A DNA stretch of 40,413 bases. Origin: a virus. Lineage: Duplodnaviria > Caudoviricetes. The stretch spans positions 1-40,413 of IMG/VR virus record IMGVR_UViG_3300049138_000107; one strand, written 5' to 3'. The notes below the pieces were generated by a model that was given only the letters and a program-made list of their open reading frames with translations, did not search any database and was not told where the DNA came from. The translations under genes were made by a program, and so were the position numbers. Below are positions 11,382-39,708 of this stretch, one piece after another (position 1 is the stretch's first letter; the number at the start of each line of letters is the position of its first letter).

Positions 11382-14300
11382 ATGGCAACACCTTCAGGCG
11401 TGGAGCTGGCGACCGCCTACGTTTCGGTCATCCCTTCCCTCAAGGGCAGCAAGACCACGATCGCGAAAGAGCTCGGCGCCAAAGCCGACCCGGCAGCCGA
11501 GCGGGCCGGGAAATCCGCAGGCGAGAAATTCACCAGCGGGCTCAAGACCGGCATCGGCAAGGTCGGCCAGGTCCTCAAGCTCGGGGTCCTGGCCGGTGGA
11601 GCCGCGGTCGCCGCCGCCGGAGTGGTCGGTATCAAGACCGCCGCCGAGATGGAGACGGCGAACATCGCGTTCACGACGATGCTCGGATCCGCCGAGGAAG
11701 CAAAGAAATTCCTCGGCGACCTCTCCAGCTTCGCGGCGAAAACGCCGTTCGACCTTCCCGGCCTCCAGCGCAGCGCCCAGTCCCTGGTTTCGATCGGCAT
11801 CGAATCGGACAAAGTGATCCCGATCATGACCACGCTCGGCAACGTGACCAGCGGCATGGGCACCGGCGCCGAAGGCGTGCAGCGGGCGACCACGGCGATC
11901 CAGCAGATGAACGCCGCCGGGAAGATCTCGGCCGAGGACCTTAACCAGCTCCGCGACGCAGGCGTCCCGGTCTTCGACCTGCTCACGGCGGCCACCGGCA
12001 AGACCACGGAAGAGATCGCCGAGATGGCGAACAAGGGCAAGCTGGGCAAGGAAGAACTCGAACAGCTCATGTCGGCCCTGGAGTCCGGCAAGGGACTCGA
12101 GAAATTCAACGGCATGATGGAGAAGCAGTCCACGAGCCTCACCGGCCTCTGGTCCACGCTTCAGGACACCTTCAGCGTTGGCATGGCCGAAGCGATCCAG
12201 CCCTTCATCCCGGCCCTCAAGGAAGGGCTCGGCGGCGCCATCACCTTTATCGCCGACCTGCTCCCGAAGGTCCAGACCGGGATCACGGAATTTATCGGCG
12301 GCATCGAAGCCTTCGGCGCGTCCTGGGCATACAACGACGGCGAGGTCACCAGCTCAGGCTTCCCCGGATTCATGGAGAGGCTCGCCTACGCCATCCGGCA
12401 GGCGGTCGACCGCGCCGTCGAATTCGGCCGCTGGCTGGATGAGAACAAAGGGACCATCGCCGCGGTCGCCGCGGTTATCGGCACCCTCCTGATTCCCGTT
12501 TTCATCCGGGCCGGAGTGCAGGCAACGATCTCCGGCGTGAAGCAGGTCGCCGCCTGGGCCGCGAGCAGCGGCGGAGCGATCAAAACCGCCGCGGTCTACG
12601 TGATCCAGAGCTACAAGATCATCGGCGCCTGGGTCGCCCAGGGAGCAGCCGCGATCAAGTCCGGCGCCCAGACCGCAGCGATCTGGCTGATGTACCGGCT
12701 CGACGCCATCAAGGCCGCCGGAGTCTACGCCGCGCAGTCCGCCCGGATCGCTGCCGCCTGGGCGGTCCAGTCCGCGGCCGCCATCGGCTCCGGCATCAAG
12801 CAGGGAGCAGTCTGGACCGGCACGATGATCCGCAGCGCCGTCACCGGAGCCGCGACCTTCGTGGTCCAGGCCGCCCGCGTCGTCGGCGGCTGGGCCCTCA
12901 TGGGAGTGCAGTCGCTCATCCACGCCGCGAGGATGGCCGCCGCCTGGTTCATCGCGCTCGGCCCGATCGGCTGGATCACCGCAGCCGTCATCGGCATCGC
13001 CATTCTCGTGATCGCAAACTGGGAAAAAATAAAAGCGTTCACGATCGCGATTTTCACGAACGTGGCGAATTTCGCCCGCGACACCTGGGCAAATATTCAG
13101 AAATGGATAACCGGCGCGATCGAATATGCCCGAGCCTGGATCAACCAAAAGATCCTCTGGATAAAGGCAGCCTGGCACCTGGTCTGGACGACCGTGAAAA
13201 ATAAGGCCGTCGAAATTTGGACCGGAATACGAAATACAATAACCGGCGCCATCGAATCGGTCCGAGCCTGGATCGACCAAAAAGTCCAGTGGATCCGCGC
13301 AGCCTGGGCCCTGGCCTGGGGAATTATCCGCGATAAAGCGACCGCGATCTGGACCGGAATAAAGGATTCAATTTCCAACGTCTGGCGGCTCGGACTGAAG
13401 CCGATTTGGGACACGATCATGCGCGTCATAACGGAGGACGTGCCTGACGCCTTCCGAAAAGGCGTCGATTTCGTGAAGGAAATCTGGTCCGGGATAAAGG
13501 CGATCGCCAAAAAACCAATTTCTTTCATCATCGACACGGTCCTGAATAAAGGGCTCATCGGCGCGTACAACACCGTCGCCGACTGGCTAAAGATCGGGAA
13601 GATCGACGAAATCAAAATCCCCGGATTCGCCCGCGGCGGCATCCTGCCCGGCTACGAGAGCCGGAAGCGGGACACCGTCCTTACCCCGATGCGGGCGGGC
13701 GAGGGAGTCCTGGTGCCGGAGGTCGTCAAGGGCATCGGCGCCGCGACCGTTCACGCGCTCAACGCCGCAGGTAACCGCGGTGGAGTCGCCGCGGTCCGGG
13801 CCCTGCTGCATCCGGGCCGGGCGAAGGGCGGGCTCATCCACCCGATGGCCGGGCCCTACACCGTCAGCTCCGGCTACGGGCCCCGCGCCGACGTCGGCTT
13901 CCATGACGGCCTGGACTTCGCTGCGCCGACCGGCACCCGGGTCCTGGCCGCCGCAGCAGGCCGGGCACTGGCAGCCGGATGGGGAGCAGGCGGTGCGGGC
14001 AACATGGTCAAGCTTGCCCACGGCGGCGGGCTCGAAACGCTCTACTACCACCTCAGCCGGGTCGCGATCCGCGCCGGGCGCCAGGTCCGCGCCGGAGAGC
14101 TCATCGGCAACGTCGGCTCGACCGGCAACAGCACCGGCCCGCACCTGCACTTCACGGTGCGCCAGGGCGGCGCCCACGTCAACCCGGCCAGCTTCCTCTC
14201 CGGCAAGCTCGGCACCGGCGACGGCGGCGGCGGCGGATTCTTCAACCCGTTCGGCAAGCTGATCGCCTGGGCGAAAGAGAAGATCACGGCAGCGTTCCCG

Positions 14301-15134
14301 CAGGCCGGGAAGTTCGTCGACCTCGCCGCGGCGACCGGCACGAAGCTCATCAGCTCCGGCATCGAATGGGCGAAGAAGAAGATCGCCTCGCTCACCGACT
14401 GGCTGCGGCCCGACGCCGGGCGGCGCAACACCTCGGCCGGGCCGCTGGCCCCGCTGCCCGGCGAAGCCCCCTGGCAGGCATCGCTGTCGAAAGACATCCG
14501 GGCCGCCCGCGGCCTGAACGTCAAGCCGAGCCCGGAGGTGCTGCGCAACTGGTCGATGGGCGACGCGGTCAACACCTGGGACCAGCTCAGCTCGCTGCGG
14601 ATCCGCCAGGGCAGCACCGACCCGCTCGCGACGGCCCAGGAAATGAGCATGGGCACGGGCATCCTCGGCAGGGCACTGGAGGACGGCGGCATCCTCCTCA
14701 ACAAGGACTACCTGCACCATTCCAGCGCTGACCGGCGGGCGACCGCGCTGCACGAACTCGGCCACGTCCTCGGGCTGCCCCACACAAACCGGGCATCGAT
14801 CATGCAGCCGGTCATCCGCAACCACCACAACCCCACGCCCTTTGACACCGAGAACCTGCGCCGCCTCTACCCCACGATCTACGACGGCGGCGGCTGGCTG
14901 GAGAACTACGGCGGCCCGCAGCTCATCGACCACCAGGCACGGAAGCCCGACGCCATCCTGACCGACGGGCAATGGGACACCATGCGCACGATCGCGGCCA
15001 ACAGCGCCACCGGCGGCGACACCTACCACCTCCATAACGTGCCGATGGACCACGCCGAAGAAGTGGCCCAGGCAATCATGTTCGAGCGCCGCCGGGTCGC
15101 CCGCGGCGGGAAATACTCAGGAGCCCGGCGATGA
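11382..15134 (+). CDS. Tape measure protein with C-terminal M23 peptidase and zincin metallopeptidase motifs
   Basis: 1250 aa; tape-measure domain (FAAKTPFDL, GKISAEDLNQL); Trp-periodic repeats; M23 motifs HDGLD and HLHF; HELGHVLGLPH at 14751-14783. Confidence 0.92.
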   Translation: MATPSGVELATAYVSVIPSLKGSKTTIAKELGAKADPAAERAGKSAGEKFTSGLKTGIGKVGQVLKLGVLAGGAAVAAAGVVGIKTAAEMETANIAFTTMLGSAEEAKKFLGDLSSFAAKTPFDLPGLQRSAQSLVSIGIESDKVIPIMTTLGNVTSGMGTGAEGVQRATTAIQQMNAAGKISAEDLNQLRDAGVPVFDLLTAATGKTTEEIAEMANKGKLGKEELEQLMSALESGKGLEKFNGMMEKQSTSLTGLWSTLQDTFSVGMAEAIQPFIPALKEGLGGAITFIADLLPKVQTGITEFIGGIEAFGASWAYNDGEVTSSGFPGFMERLAYAIRQAVDRAVEFGRWLDENKGTIAAVAAVIGTLLIPVFIRAGVQATISGVKQVAAWAASSGGAIKTAAVYVIQSYKIIGAWVAQGAAAIKSGAQTAAIWLMYRLDAIKAAGVYAAQSARIAAAWAVQSAAAIGSGIKQGAVWTGTMIRSAVTGAATFVVQAARVVGGWALMGVQSLIHAARMAAAWFIALGPIGWITAAVIGIAILVIANWEKIKAFTIAIFTNVANFARDTWANIQKWITGAIEYARAWINQKILWIKAAWHLVWTTVKNKAVEIWTGIRNTITGAIESVRAWIDQKVQWIRAAWALAWGIIRDKATAIWTGIKDSISNVWRLGLKPIWDTIMRVITEDVPDAFRKGVDFVKEIWSGIKAIAKKPISFIIDTVLNKGLIGAYNTVADWLKIGKIDEIKIPGFARGGILPGYESRKRDTVLTPMRAGEGVLVPEVVKGIGAATVHALNAAGNRGGVAAVRALLHPGRAKGGLIHPMAGPYTVSSGYGPRADVGFHDGLDFAAPTGTRVLAAAAGRALAAGWGAGGAGNMVKLAHGGGLETLYYHLSRVAIRAGRQVRAGELIGNVGSTGNSTGPHLHFTVRQGGAHVNPASFLSGKLGTGDGGGGGFFNPFGKLIAWAKEKITAAFPQAGKFVDLAAATGTKLISSGIEWAKKKIASLTDWLRPDAGRRNTSAGPLAPLPGEAPWQASLSKDIRAARGLNVKPSPEVLRNWSMGDAVNTWDQLSSLRIRQGSTDPLATAQEMSMGTGILGRALEDGGILLNKDYLHHSSADRRATALHELGHVLGLPHTNRASIMQPVIRNHHNPTPFDTENLRRLYPTIYDGGGWLENYGGPQLIDHQARKPDAILTDGQWDTMRTIAANSATGGDTYHLHNVPMDHAEEVAQAIMFERRRVARGGKYSGARR

Positions 15135-34172: not shown

Positions 34173-35069
34173 ATGTCCATTTTTGCCCCCTCAGTCAACC
34201 GCTACTTTAAGTTCACCAACGTCGGCGACGCCGTCGAAGGCCGCATCGTCGACGTCGGCGAGCCGCGCCAGTCCTACAAGTACGATCCGCGGCCGAACGC
34301 GCCCCGGCAGCTCGACTTCTACGACTCCGGGAAACCGAAGATGGAAGTCGCGATCACGCTCCAGACCGAGCTGCGCGACCCCGAAGACGCCGACGACGAC
34401 GGGCAGCGCAAGATCATCGTGCCCGTCTACTTCAAAGAGCAGTCGCAGCTCACGGCGATCCGCGAAGCCGTGCGGCTGGCCGGAGCGAAGGAACTCGACA
34501 ACGGCGGCTGGCTCGGCGTCGCCTTCGTAGGCTATGACCCGGAATCGCAGAACCCGCAGAACCCGCGCAAGCTCTACCAGGCCCTCTACCGGCCACCGGC
34601 GGGCGGCGGCGGAGTCTTCAGCCAGGGCCAGGACCAGCAGCAGCCCGCGCAGCCGCAGCAACAGCAGCCCGCCCAGGCCACCCCGCAATGGCAGCAGCAG
34701 CCGCAGCAGCCAGCACCGGCCCAGCAGCAGCCCAGGACGGCGCAGGACTACATCCAGGCCGCAGCGAACGGGTCCCATCAGCCGCAGCAGCCCGCCCAGC
34801 AGTGGCAGCAGCCGCAGCCCGCGCAACAGCCGCAGCAGGACCCCTGGCAGCCGCAGCCCGCGCAGCTCAGCACCCAGCAGTGGCAGCAGCCGTCGCAGCC
34901 GCAGCCGCAGACCTGGCAGCAGCCGCAGGCCGCCCCGCAGCAGCAGAGCACCATCGACGGCGACCAGGTCCGGGCCCTCGCCTCCCAGGGTTTCAGCGAC
35001 GACGACATCGCCGCAGCGACCGGCGCCAGCCCCGAAGCGATCCGCACCCTCCGCGGCATCCAGGGCTGA
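34173..35069 (+). CDS. Putative ssDNA-binding protein with Gln/Pro-rich linker and C-terminal HTH-like tail
   Basis: FKFTNVGDAVEGRI...KLYQALY core typical of actinophage SSB-like proteins next to exonucleases; GFSDDDIAAATGASPEAIR. Confidence 0.6.
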   Translation: MSIFAPSVNRYFKFTNVGDAVEGRIVDVGEPRQSYKYDPRPNAPRQLDFYDSGKPKMEVAITLQTELRDPEDADDDGQRKIIVPVYFKEQSQLTAIREAVRLAGAKELDNGGWLGVAFVGYDPESQNPQNPRKLYQALYRPPAGGGGVFSQGQDQQQPAQPQQQQPAQATPQWQQQPQQPAPAQQQPRTAQDYIQAAANGSHQPQQPAQQWQQPQPAQQPQQDPWQPQPAQLSTQQWQQPSQPQPQTWQQPQAAPQQQSTIDGDQVRALASQGFSDDDIAAATGASPEAIRTLRGIQG

Positions 35070-35213: not shown

Positions 35214-35843
35214 ATGGAGCACATCCAAATCGACAAGATCGCCGCCGAAACCCTCCGCGTCCCGATCCGCGGCACCTCGCCGCTGCTGATGCATAACTTC
35301 TCCGAAAAAGCGAAGAGGGAAATGCTCGACCGCGCCCAGGGCAAGAAAGCCGTCCGGGAACCGAAGGACCCCCGCGCCGAGTACGAAGCAGCGTTCTACC
35401 GCATCCACGACGAAGACGGCGCCGACCGCTACGGATTCCCGGTAACCGCCTTCAAGGCGGCAACAGTCGGCGCCGCCAGGTTCTACGGCAAGAACGTGAA
35501 GATGACCGAGCTGCGCCAGTTTATGTTCTTCCGCGGGATCCTCACCAAAGGAGACCCCCAGCAACTAGTCGAAATCCACGGCGAGCCGCAGATGCGCGAG
35601 GACGTCGTGCGGCTCGGCGGCATGGCCAAATCCGCCGACCTGCGCTACAGGCCCGAATTCCGGGAATGGACCGCCTCCCTCCAGATCACCTACGTGACGT
35701 CGAGCCTTTCCCGCAGCTCGGTCCTCTCCCTGATCGACGCCGGAGGAATGGGCATCGGCGTCGGCGAATGGCGCCCCGAAAAACGCGGCGAATTCGGCAC
35801 CTACGAAGTGGACCAGACCCGCGAAATCGAGGTGCTGTCATGA
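35214..35843 (+). CDS. Cas7/RAMP-like RNA-binding protein (Vipr-like effector)
   Basis: N-terminal strand plus IRGTSPLLMH, FPVTAFKAA helix, C-terminal Gly-rich loop GGMGIGVGEWRPEKRGEFGTY; linked to the GGYNN array; fold is inferred from motifs only. Confidence 0.7.
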   Translation: MEHIQIDKIAAETLRVPIRGTSPLLMHNFSEKAKREMLDRAQGKKAVREPKDPRAEYEAAFYRIHDEDGADRYGFPVTAFKAATVGAARFYGKNVKMTELRQFMFFRGILTKGDPQQLVEIHGEPQMREDVVRLGGMAKSADLRYRPEFREWTASLQITYVTSSLSRSSVLSLIDAGGMGIGVGEWRPEKRGEFGTYEVDQTREIEVLS

Positions 35844-36253
35844 GCCTGCGCGACCAGCTCACGGCGATCTACCAGGAACATGACCGGCTGACCCCGGACC
35901 TTGTTGTCGAAGCGGCCACACCGCCCGATCATCCGCTGCATGACCGCTTCGAGTGGAACGACAAGCTGGCCGGACATGAGTACAGGAAGGTCCAGGCGGC
36001 GGAGCTGATCCGCAAAGTGAAGGTCGTCTACGCCGACGAAGGAGGACCGAACGAAAAAAGCGTCCGCGCATTCCTGGCTACAAGCCGGGACGACACCGCG
36101 GAACGGACCTACCGCCCGATCGAAGCGGTCATGGCGGATCCATTCAGCCAGAAACTCGTCCTGCAGGAGTGCCTGCGCGAGTGGAAAACCTTTGAACGCA
36201 AATACGGGCACCTAACGGAATTCGCCCGGATCATCGGACGGCCAGCCGCCTAG
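35840..36253 (+). CDS. Partner protein of the Cas7-like gene, function unknown
   Basis: ATGA coupling; LTPDLVVEAA...HPLHDRFEWND motif; its stop codon abuts the array. Confidence 0.75.
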   Translation: MSLRDQLTAIYQEHDRLTPDLVVEAATPPDHPLHDRFEWNDKLAGHEYRKVQAAELIRKVKVVYADEGGPNEKSVRAFLATSRDDTAERTYRPIEAVMADPFSQKLVLQECLREWKTFERKYGHLTEFARIIGRPAA

Positions 36254-36542
36254 GCAGGCATGGCAGGGCTCGGCTCGACCAGGCGCGGCGTGGCAGGGCG
36301 AGGCACGGCAGGTTAGGCAGGGCTCGGCATGGCCTGGCGTGGTCCGGCTTGGCAGGCAGGGCTCGGCACGGTACGGCGTGGCACGGCATGCCTGGGCTGG
36401 GCTAGGCATGGCGCGGCAGGTTAGGCAAGGCCAGGTTGGGCATGGCCCGGCCCGGCGAGGAATGGCACGGCAGGCAGGCAAGGCAGGGCTCGGCGCGGCT
36501 AGGCATGGCTCGGCAAGGCGTGGCATGGCGCGGCAGGCAAGG
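36253..36542 (+). ncRNA. GGY-NN pentamer array, putative guide-RNA locus with five units (10, 8, 12, 10 and 11 pentamers) separated by GGCA
   Basis: Strict 5-nt period with constant GGC/GGT and variable dinucleotides; phase shifts only at GGCA (36253, 36307, 36351, 36415, 36469/36473, 36532). RNA status is inferred. Confidence 0.8.
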
Positions 36543-36578
36543 AAAAAAACGGCACCCAAAAGAACTGGAGGAATTATC

Positions 36579-36815
36579 ATGACCGACCCGATCCCCGCCG
36601 CAGACATCGTCCAGGGACTGCTGCACAACATCCGCGACCGCCAGCAGCAGCGCAGCCGCCTCTACCAGGACATCATCACCGCAGCCGACATCGCCGAACG
36701 CAAAGCCCTCGGCATCCTCATCACCGCCACCCCGGGCGGCACCCTCATGGTCCAGGCCAGCGAGGAAGTCCCGCCCGGCGAAGCCTACGCCCGCCAGGAC
36801 AAGGACAAATCATGA
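36579..36815 (+). CDS. Hypothetical protein
   Basis: RBS GGAGG before ATG 36579. Confidence 0.7.
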   Translation: MTDPIPAADIVQGLLHNIRDRQQQRSRLYQDIITAADIAERKALGILITATPGGTLMVQASEEVPPGEAYARQDKDKS

Positions 36816-37219
36816 GCCCGATCCGCAACCTAATCGACATCCTCCGCCGGGCCCGAATCATCGGCCCGCCCATGACCGAAGCCGCCATCAGGGAGCAGGT
36901 AAACGCCATGACCGACCCCGTCGACATCCTCGCCGCCCTCGACTACACGACACCGTGCCTGGCCGGGCCCGAAGGACTCGTCCTGCGCGAAGACAAGCCC
37001 TGCACCGAGCCCGCCCTGTTCCTCGCCCACGTCCACTATTGCAGCGAACAGGACCGCAGCGGCATGGTCGCGCTCACCTGGTGCCCCGACCACGTCGGCA
37101 TGTACGCGCTCGGCATGCGCTACCTCCTCACCGAATGCCGCGGCATCCTCCCGTGCGGATTCCAGCCCGCCCGGATGAGCGACCTGATCCGCATCCAGAA
37201 ACTGAAGGACCTCCAGTGA
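36812..37219 (+). CDS. Cys-rich hypothetical protein
   Basis: ATGA and GTGA overlaps; several Cys/His residues. Confidence 0.6.
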   Translation: MSPIRNLIDILRRARIIGPPMTEAAIREQVNAMTDPVDILAALDYTTPCLAGPEGLVLREDKPCTEPALFLAHVHYCSEQDRSGMVALTWCPDHVGMYALGMRYLLTECRGILPCGFQPARMSDLIRIQKLKDLQ

Positions 37220-39708
37220 GCAACCCCATCCTCGACACCGCAAAAGAACTCCACGCCGCCGGGATCTCCGTGGTCCCGGTCCAGGCCGACGGATCCAAAC
37301 GGCCCGCAGGCCGGAGCTGGAAGCAATACACCACCGGCCGCGCAACCGCCCCGGAGCTCGACGCCTGGTTCACGACACCCGGATTCGGGCTCGGCGTCGT
37401 CACCGGCGCCATTAGCGGGAACCTGGAAATGGCCGAAGTCGAAGGCCGCGCCGCTGACCGCATCCCGGAGCTCACGCAGCTCGCCGACGCCAGCGGGCTG
37501 GGCGGGCTGTGGCACCGGCTCAACGCCGGATGGGTCGAGCAGTCACCGACCGGCGGCGTCCATTGGCTCTACCGGCTCGACGGCCAGGTCCCCGGGAACA
37601 CGAAGATCGCCAGGACCGCCAAGCGCCTGGTCCTCGCCGAGACAAGAGGTGAGGGCGGATTCGTCGTCGTCGCCCCGTCGGCCGGGACCGTCCACGAAAC
37701 CGGGCGCCCCTGGATCCGGCTCGCGGGCGGCCCGGCGACGGCGCCGAAGCTCACCGCAGAGGACCGTGAAGCCTTCCACCACCTGCTCGCCACGCTCGGC
37801 GAGGACCCGGCCGAACCGGAACCGGAACCGACCCTGGACATCGGCACGACGTCGGTCTTCGGCGCCAACCCGCCCCGCGACGACGACGGGCGGCTCGAAG
37901 GCATCAGCCCGCTCGACGACTACGAGCAGAAAACCGACTGGGCCGACATCCTCGTCCCGGAGGGCTGGACGAAGGTCTTCGAGCGCGGCCGCACCAGGTA
38001 CTGGCGGCGGCCAGGAAAGAACATCGGGATCTCCGCGACCACCGGCAACGCCCAGGACCGCGACCGGCTGTACGTCTTCACCAGCAGCACCGAATTCGAG
38101 CCGGAGCGCCCGTACACCAAACAAGGCGCCTACGCGCTGCTGCACCACGGCGGCGATCACTCGAAGGCCGCCTCCGCGCTCCGCTCGGACAACTTCGGCG
38201 CCGAGCAGAAGATCCGCATCCAGCGCCCCCAGGAACCACCGCAACAGCCCATGACCATCTGGTCGCCGACCGAGGACACCGGCACCGACGGCGCCCTCGC
38301 CCCGGTCATCCAGATCGCCGACCGGCAGCCGAAGGCCGAAGCGACCGTCGCCCACAGCGACGACGGCAACGCCGTCCTCCTCGTCGCCGAGCGCGGCGAC
38401 ATCCTCCGCTACAACCCGGACCGCGGCCGCTGGCTCGTCTGGAACGGCACGGCCTGGAAATGGCAGCCCCACGGCGGCGGCCAAGCCCGCGAGATCGCCA
38501 AAGACGTCATCCGGGCCATGCCCGTCCACAACAACGAAGACCGCAAGCACCAGCGCAAGTCCCTCAACTCGCTCGGCATCTCGAACATGCTCGGCCAGGC
38601 CCAAACAGATCCGGCGATCACCGTGACCAGCGACCAGCTCGACGCCCACCCCTGGGAGCTCAACACCCCGGGCGGCATCCTCGACCTGCGCACCGGCACC
38701 CTGCGCCCGCCGGACCCGACCAGGCTGCACACCAGGACCACCGCCTGCACCCCGGACTTCGAAGCCGACCGCACCCTCTGGCACGGATTCCTGGCCGACA
38801 CCTTCCCCTGCAACGCCGAGCTGGTCGCCTTCATGAAACGCCTGATCGGATACACCGCCGTCGGCGAAGTCCGCGAGCACATACTCCCGTTCGCCCACGG
38901 CGACGGCGGCAACGGCAAAGGCGTCCTCATGGAATCGATCGCCGCGGTCCTCGGCGACTACGCGACCAGCACCGGCAACGGATTCCTCATGGCGTCCTCC
39001 TTCCAACAGCACTCCACCGACATCGCCGGGCTCGCCGGGATCCGCATGGCCATGTGCTCCGAGGTCAACGAAGGCGACCGCTTCGACGAAGCCAAGGTCA
39101 AGCTGCTCACCGGCGGAGACAGACTCACCGCCAGGTTCATGCGACAAGACAACTTCACCTTCACGCCGACGCACACCCTCTGGCTCGCCGGGAACCACCA
39201 GCCGCACGTCACGGCGGGCGGCGACGGATTCTGGCGCCGCCTCCGGCTCATCCCGTTCCTGCACACCGTGCCGGAGGACAAGATCCTTCCCGGCCTCGCC
39301 GACATCCTCGCCAAACAGCACGGCCCCGCGCTGCTCGCCTGGGTCGCCGAGGGCGCCGCGGAATACGCCGCCACCGGGCTGCGCGAGCCCTCCGAGGTCC
39401 GGGCCGCCACGAAGGAATACGCCGCATCCGTCGACACCGTCGGCCGCTTCCTCGAAGACGCCTGCTACACCGGCGCCGCGGGCCGCAGCATGACCGTCAC
39501 GATCGCGCAATTCCGAACCGCCTACGAGGACTGGTGCCGGGCCAACGGCGAGAATCCGCTCAAGGGCAGGACCCTGGCCAAACAGCTCCAGCACCACGGC
39601 GTGCTCGTCGGCCGCGACGCCCCGAAAGGCCCGAACGGCGTCCGCATGTACGGCGGCATCGGCCTGCGCTACCAAGGCGAGCCCAACTGGTGGGAAAGCG
39701 ACCAATGA
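37216..39708 (+). CDS. Bifunctional primase-polymerase fused to a D5/P4-type SF3 helicase
   Basis: Prim-Pol motifs (VVPV..DGSKRP, SPTGGVHWLY, ETRGEGGFVVVAPS); D5_N region; Walker A GDGGNGKG; KLLTGGD. Confidence 0.9.
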   Translation: MSNPILDTAKELHAAGISVVPVQADGSKRPAGRSWKQYTTGRATAPELDAWFTTPGFGLGVVTGAISGNLEMAEVEGRAADRIPELTQLADASGLGGLWHRLNAGWVEQSPTGGVHWLYRLDGQVPGNTKIARTAKRLVLAETRGEGGFVVVAPSAGTVHETGRPWIRLAGGPATAPKLTAEDREAFHHLLATLGEDPAEPEPEPTLDIGTTSVFGANPPRDDDGRLEGISPLDDYEQKTDWADILVPEGWTKVFERGRTRYWRRPGKNIGISATTGNAQDRDRLYVFTSSTEFEPERPYTKQGAYALLHHGGDHSKAASALRSDNFGAEQKIRIQRPQEPPQQPMTIWSPTEDTGTDGALAPVIQIADRQPKAEATVAHSDDGNAVLLVAERGDILRYNPDRGRWLVWNGTAWKWQPHGGGQAREIAKDVIRAMPVHNNEDRKHQRKSLNSLGISNMLGQAQTDPAITVTSDQLDAHPWELNTPGGILDLRTGTLRPPDPTRLHTRTTACTPDFEADRTLWHGFLADTFPCNAELVAFMKRLIGYTAVGEVREHILPFAHGDGGNGKGVLMESIAAVLGDYATSTGNGFLMASSFQQHSTDIAGLAGIRMAMCSEVNEGDRFDEAKVKLLTGGDRLTARFMRQDNFTFTPTHTLWLAGNHQPHVTAGGDGFWRRLRLIPFLHTVPEDKILPGLADILAKQHGPALLAWVAEGAAEYAATGLREPSEVRAATKEYAASVDTVGRFLEDACYTGAAGRSMTVTIAQFRTAYEDWCRANGENPLKGRTLAKQLQHHGVLVGRDAPKGPNGVRMYGGIGLRYQGEPNWWESDQ

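Follow-up and report, generated by a model that had tools for sequence, protein, structure and literature searches.

The VIPR system combines Vipr, a protein of a single RAMP/RRM fold that includes a thumb and a G-loop, with a vrRNA built of GGY and NN elements (Yoon et al., bioRxiv 10.64898/2026.04.26.720920). As that preprint describes them, the guides alternate GGY with a variable NN, typically over 9–16 repeats, and in staggered arrays they overlap by 1 nt, the end of one guide being the start of the next (bioRxiv 10.64898/2026.04.26.720920). The surveys in its text report no self match at 80% or above. In the Vipr of SUSP1, GGY is held by residues H17, R138, D177, W178 and R179 of the G-loop and thumb, and the guides end in a 3′ pseudoknot that is the start point of assembly (bioRxiv 10.64898/2026.04.26.720927). 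The SUSP1 system acts against a satellite recombinase; the preprint text also describes guides aimed at relatives that score lower on self, and guides directed against vipr (Lopez et al., bioRxiv 10.64898/2026.10.15.759431). The system, its code, the targeting of active sites and self-sparing are already published, and the system that a sequence-only reading of this DNA had pointed out is not new.

The DNA analysed here (the window) is a whole virus record of 40,413 bases. We asked how its cassette compares with the described systems, what its fourth guide reads, and whether the phage's own copy of the target is spared.

The phage and its vipr cassette

By Pfam, the window encodes a temperate tailed phage with terminase, portal, capsid, tape measure, amidase, tyrosine integrase, two paired repressors and a primase-polymerase/helicase. 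Its terminase is closest to that of Arthrobacter phage Shambre1 (66.5%), and Arthrobacter phage records make up 19/21 endolysin matches and 17/24 primase matches. These matches make Arthrobacter, or a genus close to it, the probable host. The letters of the array and of the own site discussed below are the same in the run X1 contigs; the window DNA may itself come from that run, so that this agreement is not independent. M23 and M10-like peptidase domains lie within the tape-measure protein (11382-15134).

The cassette consists of two predicted genes and an array:

35214..35843, + strand: vipr, 209 aa RAMP-fold effector (PDB sequence match to SUSP1 Vipr 36pp_D; model; PHROG 4652)
35840..36253, + strand: putative vap accessory gene, 137 aa, overlapping the vipr stop (PHROG 15946)
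36253..36545, + strand: vrRNA array, five GGYNN guides parted by GGCA tetramers (sequence parse)

Among 177,635 PDB sequences, SUSP1 Vipr 36pp_D was the sole match for the 35214-35843 ORF (E 3e-5), and a profile of 40 sequences improved this match to E 3e-6. The AlphaFold model (pLDDT 75) resembles Cas7/Csm3-type RAMP chains (E 2e-6, TM about 0.5). H27, R146, E185, W186 and R187 align with the GGY-binding residues of SUSP1, with aspartate changed to glutamate at 185, and are invariant in 40/40 aligned Vipr homologs. The vipr cluster, PHROG 4652, is of unknown function. The family comprises 3433 proteins, and related loci bear the same GGCA-split arrays. The cassette is very probably a member of the VIPR system.

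The putative vap gene has a homolog in 71/81 vipr loci. It has no Pfam family, gives a poor model (pLDDT 40), matches only unnamed viral clusters and was assigned to none of vap1-6. Immediately 5′ of vipr is an SSB-like gene (34173-35069) of PHROG 1911, a cluster of unknown function; it bears a long repeat tail rich in Gln and Pro. Vipr homologs are present in 34 cultured-phage records, 27 of them from Mycobacterium and 5 from Gordonia, and these cultured phages are ready experimental models. In Gordonia phage Pipp (MN234179.1), gene 43 is annotated as a hypothetical protein, overlies a GGYNN array (L340:3111-3380) and sits between the vipr and vap homologs.

Structure of the guide array

The array was parsed into five units:

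36257..36306, + strand: guide unit 1
36311..36350, + strand: guide unit 2
36355..36414, + strand: guide unit 3
36419..36468, + strand: guide unit 4; NN1-8 read the His motif of the primase-polymerase, and no known allele suits NN9-10
36477..36531, + strand: guide unit 5; reads a tyrosine-integrase catalytic-Tyr motif

The units hold 10, 8, 12, 10 and 11 NN, respectively (parse of 36253-36545). They are joined only via the 4-nt GGCA, with no tail between them, and the period changes from 5 to 4 at these junctions, which is a one-base register shift. The same build was found in 297 complete units from 60 related loci, and the NN positions of these clade units vary freely. A protein-coding reading of the array was considered, as one plus frame is open throughout (ORF 36339-36815). 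The 5-nt period and the conserved junctions speak against it, and the gene of this ORF has its own GGAGG and ATG at 36568-36581.

Unit 4 has ten pentamers flanked by GGCA tetramers, nine with GGY and one with GGA (36459). The idea that the GGA scaffold is the end of the working guide, at the point where the match stops, was rejected. Among clade scaffolds 58/3037 are GGA, and L048, L060 and L092 have guides whose matches continue on both sides of a GGA.

Long NN runs are common to neighbouring guides within the L091, L095 and L099 arrays, and units 1, 2, 3 and 5 of the window all have AG-TC close to their 5′ end. Both patterns hint at duplication and recombination as the origin of guides. Single guides or further arrays were found 1.5–2 kb away from the cassette (L048:9018-9096, L053:12558-12636 and several in L097); L097 has more than 40 units. 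A guide that recurs in the arrays of L043, L046, L051 and L054 decodes to about (I/T)AHE(L/M)GHL(V/C), which we take to resemble the HExxH motif of ImmA-type anti-repressor peptidases.

The code and the other guides

The wobble-skipping code proposed from the letters of the array is the published VIPR 1-nt-skip rule. It was examined with the 297 complete clade guides across 60 related loci, a match being counted if its expected count was below 0.05. Fifteen guides had a match under a 1-nt skip and 3 under a 2-nt skip. The strong matches lie in vipr itself, in integrases and in genes that, as labelled by sequence reading, resemble an excisionase and a capsid gene.

A second sensible motif had been claimed for the same array. 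The 20-letter pattern of unit 5 gave two viral matches, 2/2 in frame in integrases, which the whole guide fits at 22/22 and 21/22. The second motif is thus real, a tyrosine-integrase catalytic motif matched at 22/22. It ends in what is presumably the catalytic Tyr region. Matches to units 1, 2 and 3 (8, 2 and 7, respectively) revealed no common gene, and unit 3 had 0 matches in 151 genomes. A reading of unit 3 as an integrase motif on the template strand failed (0/7 matches).

The primase motif read by unit 4

The reverse-complemented dinucleotides of unit 4 are GT AT TC GG GG AT CA TG TT TA, exactly as decoded in the sequence-only reading, which assigned them to the His motif of the primase-polymerase of related phages. 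The window's own enzyme is encoded just downstream:

37216..39708, + strand: own primase-polymerase/helicase, 830 aa (Pfam Prim-Pol 11-177, D5_N, DUF5906)

The check proposed there, a search with the 16-letter gapped pattern, yielded 39 exact matches in viral contigs. 26/39 are in frame on the primase His motif, on the sense strand with the skip on the wobble base, and read SGGIHW(L/F)Y. Their genes are homologs of the own primase (E at most 1e-78). The other 13 lack primase homology, and the pattern frame is open there for only 5–35 codons. A permuted-dinucleotide control gave 4 matches in viral contigs, in unrelated contexts. With 26/39 against 4 control matches, the assignment to the primase-polymerase of related phages is borne out. 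The 26 collapse to 10, 5 and 4 groups at 95, 80 and 60% identity, and 23/26 form one lower-GC group of unknown host.

The pattern was also searched in the 401 genomes from the family to which Arthrobacter sp. GMC3 belongs, which we take to be Micrococcaceae. Fifteen sites had at most one mismatch, and 7/15 are primases in frame, as are 3/4 perfect sites. The backward control gave 9 matches in these genomes. The refutation test set in the sequence-only reading was thus passed in the viral contigs and in these genomes. One of the genomic matches, G003, is the same prophage as viral match L039. The primase frame around the perfect site of L295 (G183:C1:2164717) spans just 377 codons from stop to stop, fewer than in its homologs, and is possibly a broken prophage gene. 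Two Micrococcaceae prophage regions, L129 and L131, hold a primase site (14/16 and 16/16, respectively) plus an 18/22 integrase site each. No unit 5 site with three or fewer mismatches was found in G003, G004, G005, G147 or G183.

A set of 165 loci was fetched by protein homology, not via the pattern. These loci have 41 sites at 15–16/16 with a 1-nt skip and none with skips of 0, 2 or 3. When shuffled guides were scored on them, 0/600 reached 16 and 8/600 reached 15. Since the set is primase-enriched by design, these counts test register and code more than the choice of target.

Which phages carry the site? G004 is syntenic with the window phage (terminase 78%, capsid 67%, primase 59%) and has a 16/16 site, and G005 is similar. 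These two full phages are the most plausible rivals. The window query found no vipr in G001-G005, among which only G004 is a complete virus record. Named Arthrobacter phages score 14/16 in 5/5 cases, and most close relatives score 14–15/16, one or two letters better than self.

AEP primase motif II (sxH) is described as required for nucleotide binding (Kazlauskas et al. 2018, PMC5862659). The targeted G-x-H fits this motif by its sxH pattern and the Pfam Prim-Pol match. His116 is encoded by CAN in 88/88 representatives. A sequence relative of the primase domain was not found among solved structures.

The primase match could instead be a chance decode of eight dinucleotides, the true 20-letter target lying in an unsequenced element. 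The core was picked post hoc, redundancy swells the match count (4 groups), and three other guides are without a known target. Against this, no shuffled guide reached 16/16 in the same 165 loci, matches occur in genomes of the probable host's family and in a relative with syntenic gene order, and an 18-letter metagenome scan returned 5 matches with no common gene. We regard a chance decode as very unlikely. That unit 4 is directed at the primase-polymerase gene of related phages we hold to be highly probable.

The near-match in the phage's own gene

The own primase gene contains one site that resembles the target:

37543..37572, + strand: own near-match to guide 4, 13/16 in the core and 13/20 in total; Thr112 codon at 37549-37551

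The core, ACC GGC GGC GTC CAT TGG CTC TAC at 37549-37572, encodes TGGVHWLY, residues 112-119 of the primase-polymerase. It matches at 13/16 letters (81% of the 8-NN core), and the two further dinucleotides mismatch, with 0/4 letters matching; on both counts the sequence-only reading was accurate. The three core differences are all at codon position 1 (37549, 37558 and 37567), and that at 37558 could form an rU-dG wobble pair. With base-shuffled guides, 104/1000 reached 13/16 somewhere in the window (p 0.10), and 987/1000 reached 13/20 (p 0.99). The self match was rejected as evidence, as it is at chance level against shuffled guides. The sequence-only reading had overstated this near-miss, and its 13/16 figure omits two dinucleotides post hoc.

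The own site would have 13 Watson-Crick pairs and one possible wobble pair of 16, and the array and this site are 1.1 kb apart. Both facts would suit a guide that weakly binds its own primase gene and brakes its own replication, as autoregulation or in support of lysogeny. At all three differing places, however, the guide letter is that of the relatives and not that of the own gene. The published surveys cited above are also without self matches at 80% or above, and unit 5 has no self site, its best match in the window being only 14/22. We hold a self-directed brake to be distinctly unlikely.

NN9-10 of unit 4 present a different difficulty. They would read V-(I/M) before the Ser, where the codon is CCN (Pro) in 88/88 representatives. 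No 20/20 site for unit 4 was found among the 39 viral core matches or in metagenome contigs; the best of the 39 is 18/20 and out of coding frame. Because NN9-10 fit no allele, the best rival reaches 16/20, just at the published 80% cut-off. Unit 4 might accordingly be a guide that was once aimed at the primase motif and has since decayed or recombined, in which case the self mismatch is functionless, ordinary divergence. The unit shares its end, GA..AC-GGCA, with unit 1 and its start, GGT-TA-GGC-A, with unit 2. Recombination between units would produce such a pattern, and unit 4 may be a recombinant of neighbouring units. Other validated clade guides match at 86–100% over their length. Yet an unbroken stretch of sixteen read letters still fits living relatives perfectly. 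Guides of 8 NN are frequent in the clade (43/297) and include one at 16/16 (L107), and the own allele stands near the bottom among its kin. Decay is unlikely on balance, although less so than the brake or the chance decode.

Possible self-avoidance

The sequence-only reading had suggested that the phage avoids its own guide by mismatch. We compared the own allele with those of relatives, which are not independent of one another. Among the 40 nearest distinct alleles, 37 scored higher than self, 2 equal and 1 lower. Among 80 more distant genome loci 56 scored lower, 15 equal and 9 higher, placing self above the median. Residue 112 is a TCN Ser in 24/24 representatives at 52% identity or more, and Thr in the own gene; Thr occurs there in 1/88 representatives overall. 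Conservation reaches 90% or more in 56 columns; the own gene differs from the consensus in two of these, once silently and once by Thr112. With 5/56 conserved columns under the guide, the probability of coincidence is about 0.09 for one change and 0.17 for either of two. The part of the claim that stands is that the own allele ranks low beside those of its close kin; with a key p of only about 0.1-0.2, avoidance as such is suggestive.

Other guides of the clade were examined in the same way. 555 parsed units (some parses overlapping) were scored on 81 vipr and 71 vap genes, and 11 reached 85%. Two of these are strong, and both spare self. The anti-vipr guide of L048 scores 25/28 against 20/28 on self, with 9/10 nearest relatives higher and 1 equal. 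The anti-vipr guide of L107 scores 16/16 against 13/16 on self, with 10/10 nearest relatives higher, including one that is 87% identical. An 8-NN guide of L080 does not spare self, since no other vap outscores its own (14/16, close to what chance gives), and the remaining eight are 7-NN matches attainable by chance. The L048 guide reads the end of the vipr G-loop, where the window's own vipr (35777-35818) scores 24/28; the window phage is therefore a predicted target of a rival's anti-vipr guide.

The phage's own primase is fairly likely to be spared by guide 4. The data fit an escape of the own gene and a loss of self-matching guides equally. That selection on the own gene caused the mismatch is a tentative proposal at best. 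It would mean that a near-invariant Ser beside the catalytic His of the primase became Thr in escape from the phage's own guide, and that the owners of the L107 and L048 guides changed likewise in their own Vipr, a scenario that we consider possible and somewhat doubtful. Since VIPR is without a PAM or other self mark, self-tolerance would, in this reading, be written into the phage's own essential genes. If so, guides aimed at kin would drive conservative amino-acid change in active-site motifs, and related phages would split into mutually targeting groups.

Discussion

The reading that we favour, with some reserve, is that unit 4 is a VIPR guide against the primase motif of rivals that silences their replication gene and spares the phage's own copy. 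Silencing of the rivals is likely, and so is the sparing of the own copy, in which three of the letters read by the guide are different. By analogy with SUSP1 VIPR, the array would be transcribed and cut at the GGCA junctions into single guides, with each pentamer coated by one Vipr protomer. NN1-8 spell codon positions 1 and 2 of the primase-polymerase His motif of related actinophages. The guide would pair with the coding strand about 330 nt into the gene, skipping every wobble base, and the bound filament would stop transcription of the rival primase gene, again as modelled on SUSP1. In a resident or co-infecting temperate phage, guide 5 would block excision and guide 4 replication. Within the rightward block that follows the two repressors, the cassette is flanked by the exonuclease/SSB-like pair and the primase, and this position makes early lytic expression likely.

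With these findings, VIPR targets are also predicted for a clade of actinophages whose arrays lack tails. They also add a target class, the replication primase, which was not found in print in the literature searched. The site offers a natural allelic series at 13, 14, 15 and 16 of 16, including cultured Arthrobacter phages (14/16). Examples are the own allele (13/16) and those of Arthrobacter phage Eileen/Bridgette (14/16), L211 (15/16) and G004 (16/16). Such a series could measure how many mismatches a system that lacks a PAM needs to tell self and non-self apart.

A literature search found no report of VIPR with a primase-polymerase, and neither 'primase' nor 'actino' occurs in the main text or the supplement PDF of Yoon et al.; 'primase' is likewise absent from the text of Lopez et al. 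(10.64898/2026.10.15.759431). The data tables of these papers may list such targets. Like the VIPR of Yoon et al., as far as their text describes it, the window has a phage-borne vipr with one accessory gene and a GGYNN array, and it shares the 1-nt-skip code with the skip on the wobble base, targets in competing phages and the lack of a self match at 80% or above. Its junctions, with their one-base register shift, resemble the 'staggered' arrays of the fig. S18 legend. It differs from the systems in that text in its actinophage clade and in having a replication primase as target. Unlike type II (SUSP1-like) VIPR as described there, the window guides are without a conserved structured 3′ tail, and no 3′ pseudoknot of the kind reported for SUSP1 Vipr guides lies between the units. 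The GGY-holding G-loop and thumb residues reported for SUSP1 Vipr (PDB 36pp) are conserved in the window Vipr. Like the guides in the text of Lopez et al., the window guides read codon positions 1 and 2 of an enzyme active site; lower scores on self for guides aimed at relatives, and the existence of anti-vipr guides, are further points in common. In that work a satellite is the target and vrRNA loci are what is spared in self. In the window phage, self-sparing would apply to its own replication enzyme, which is essential, and the elements matched include the full tailed phages G004 and G005.
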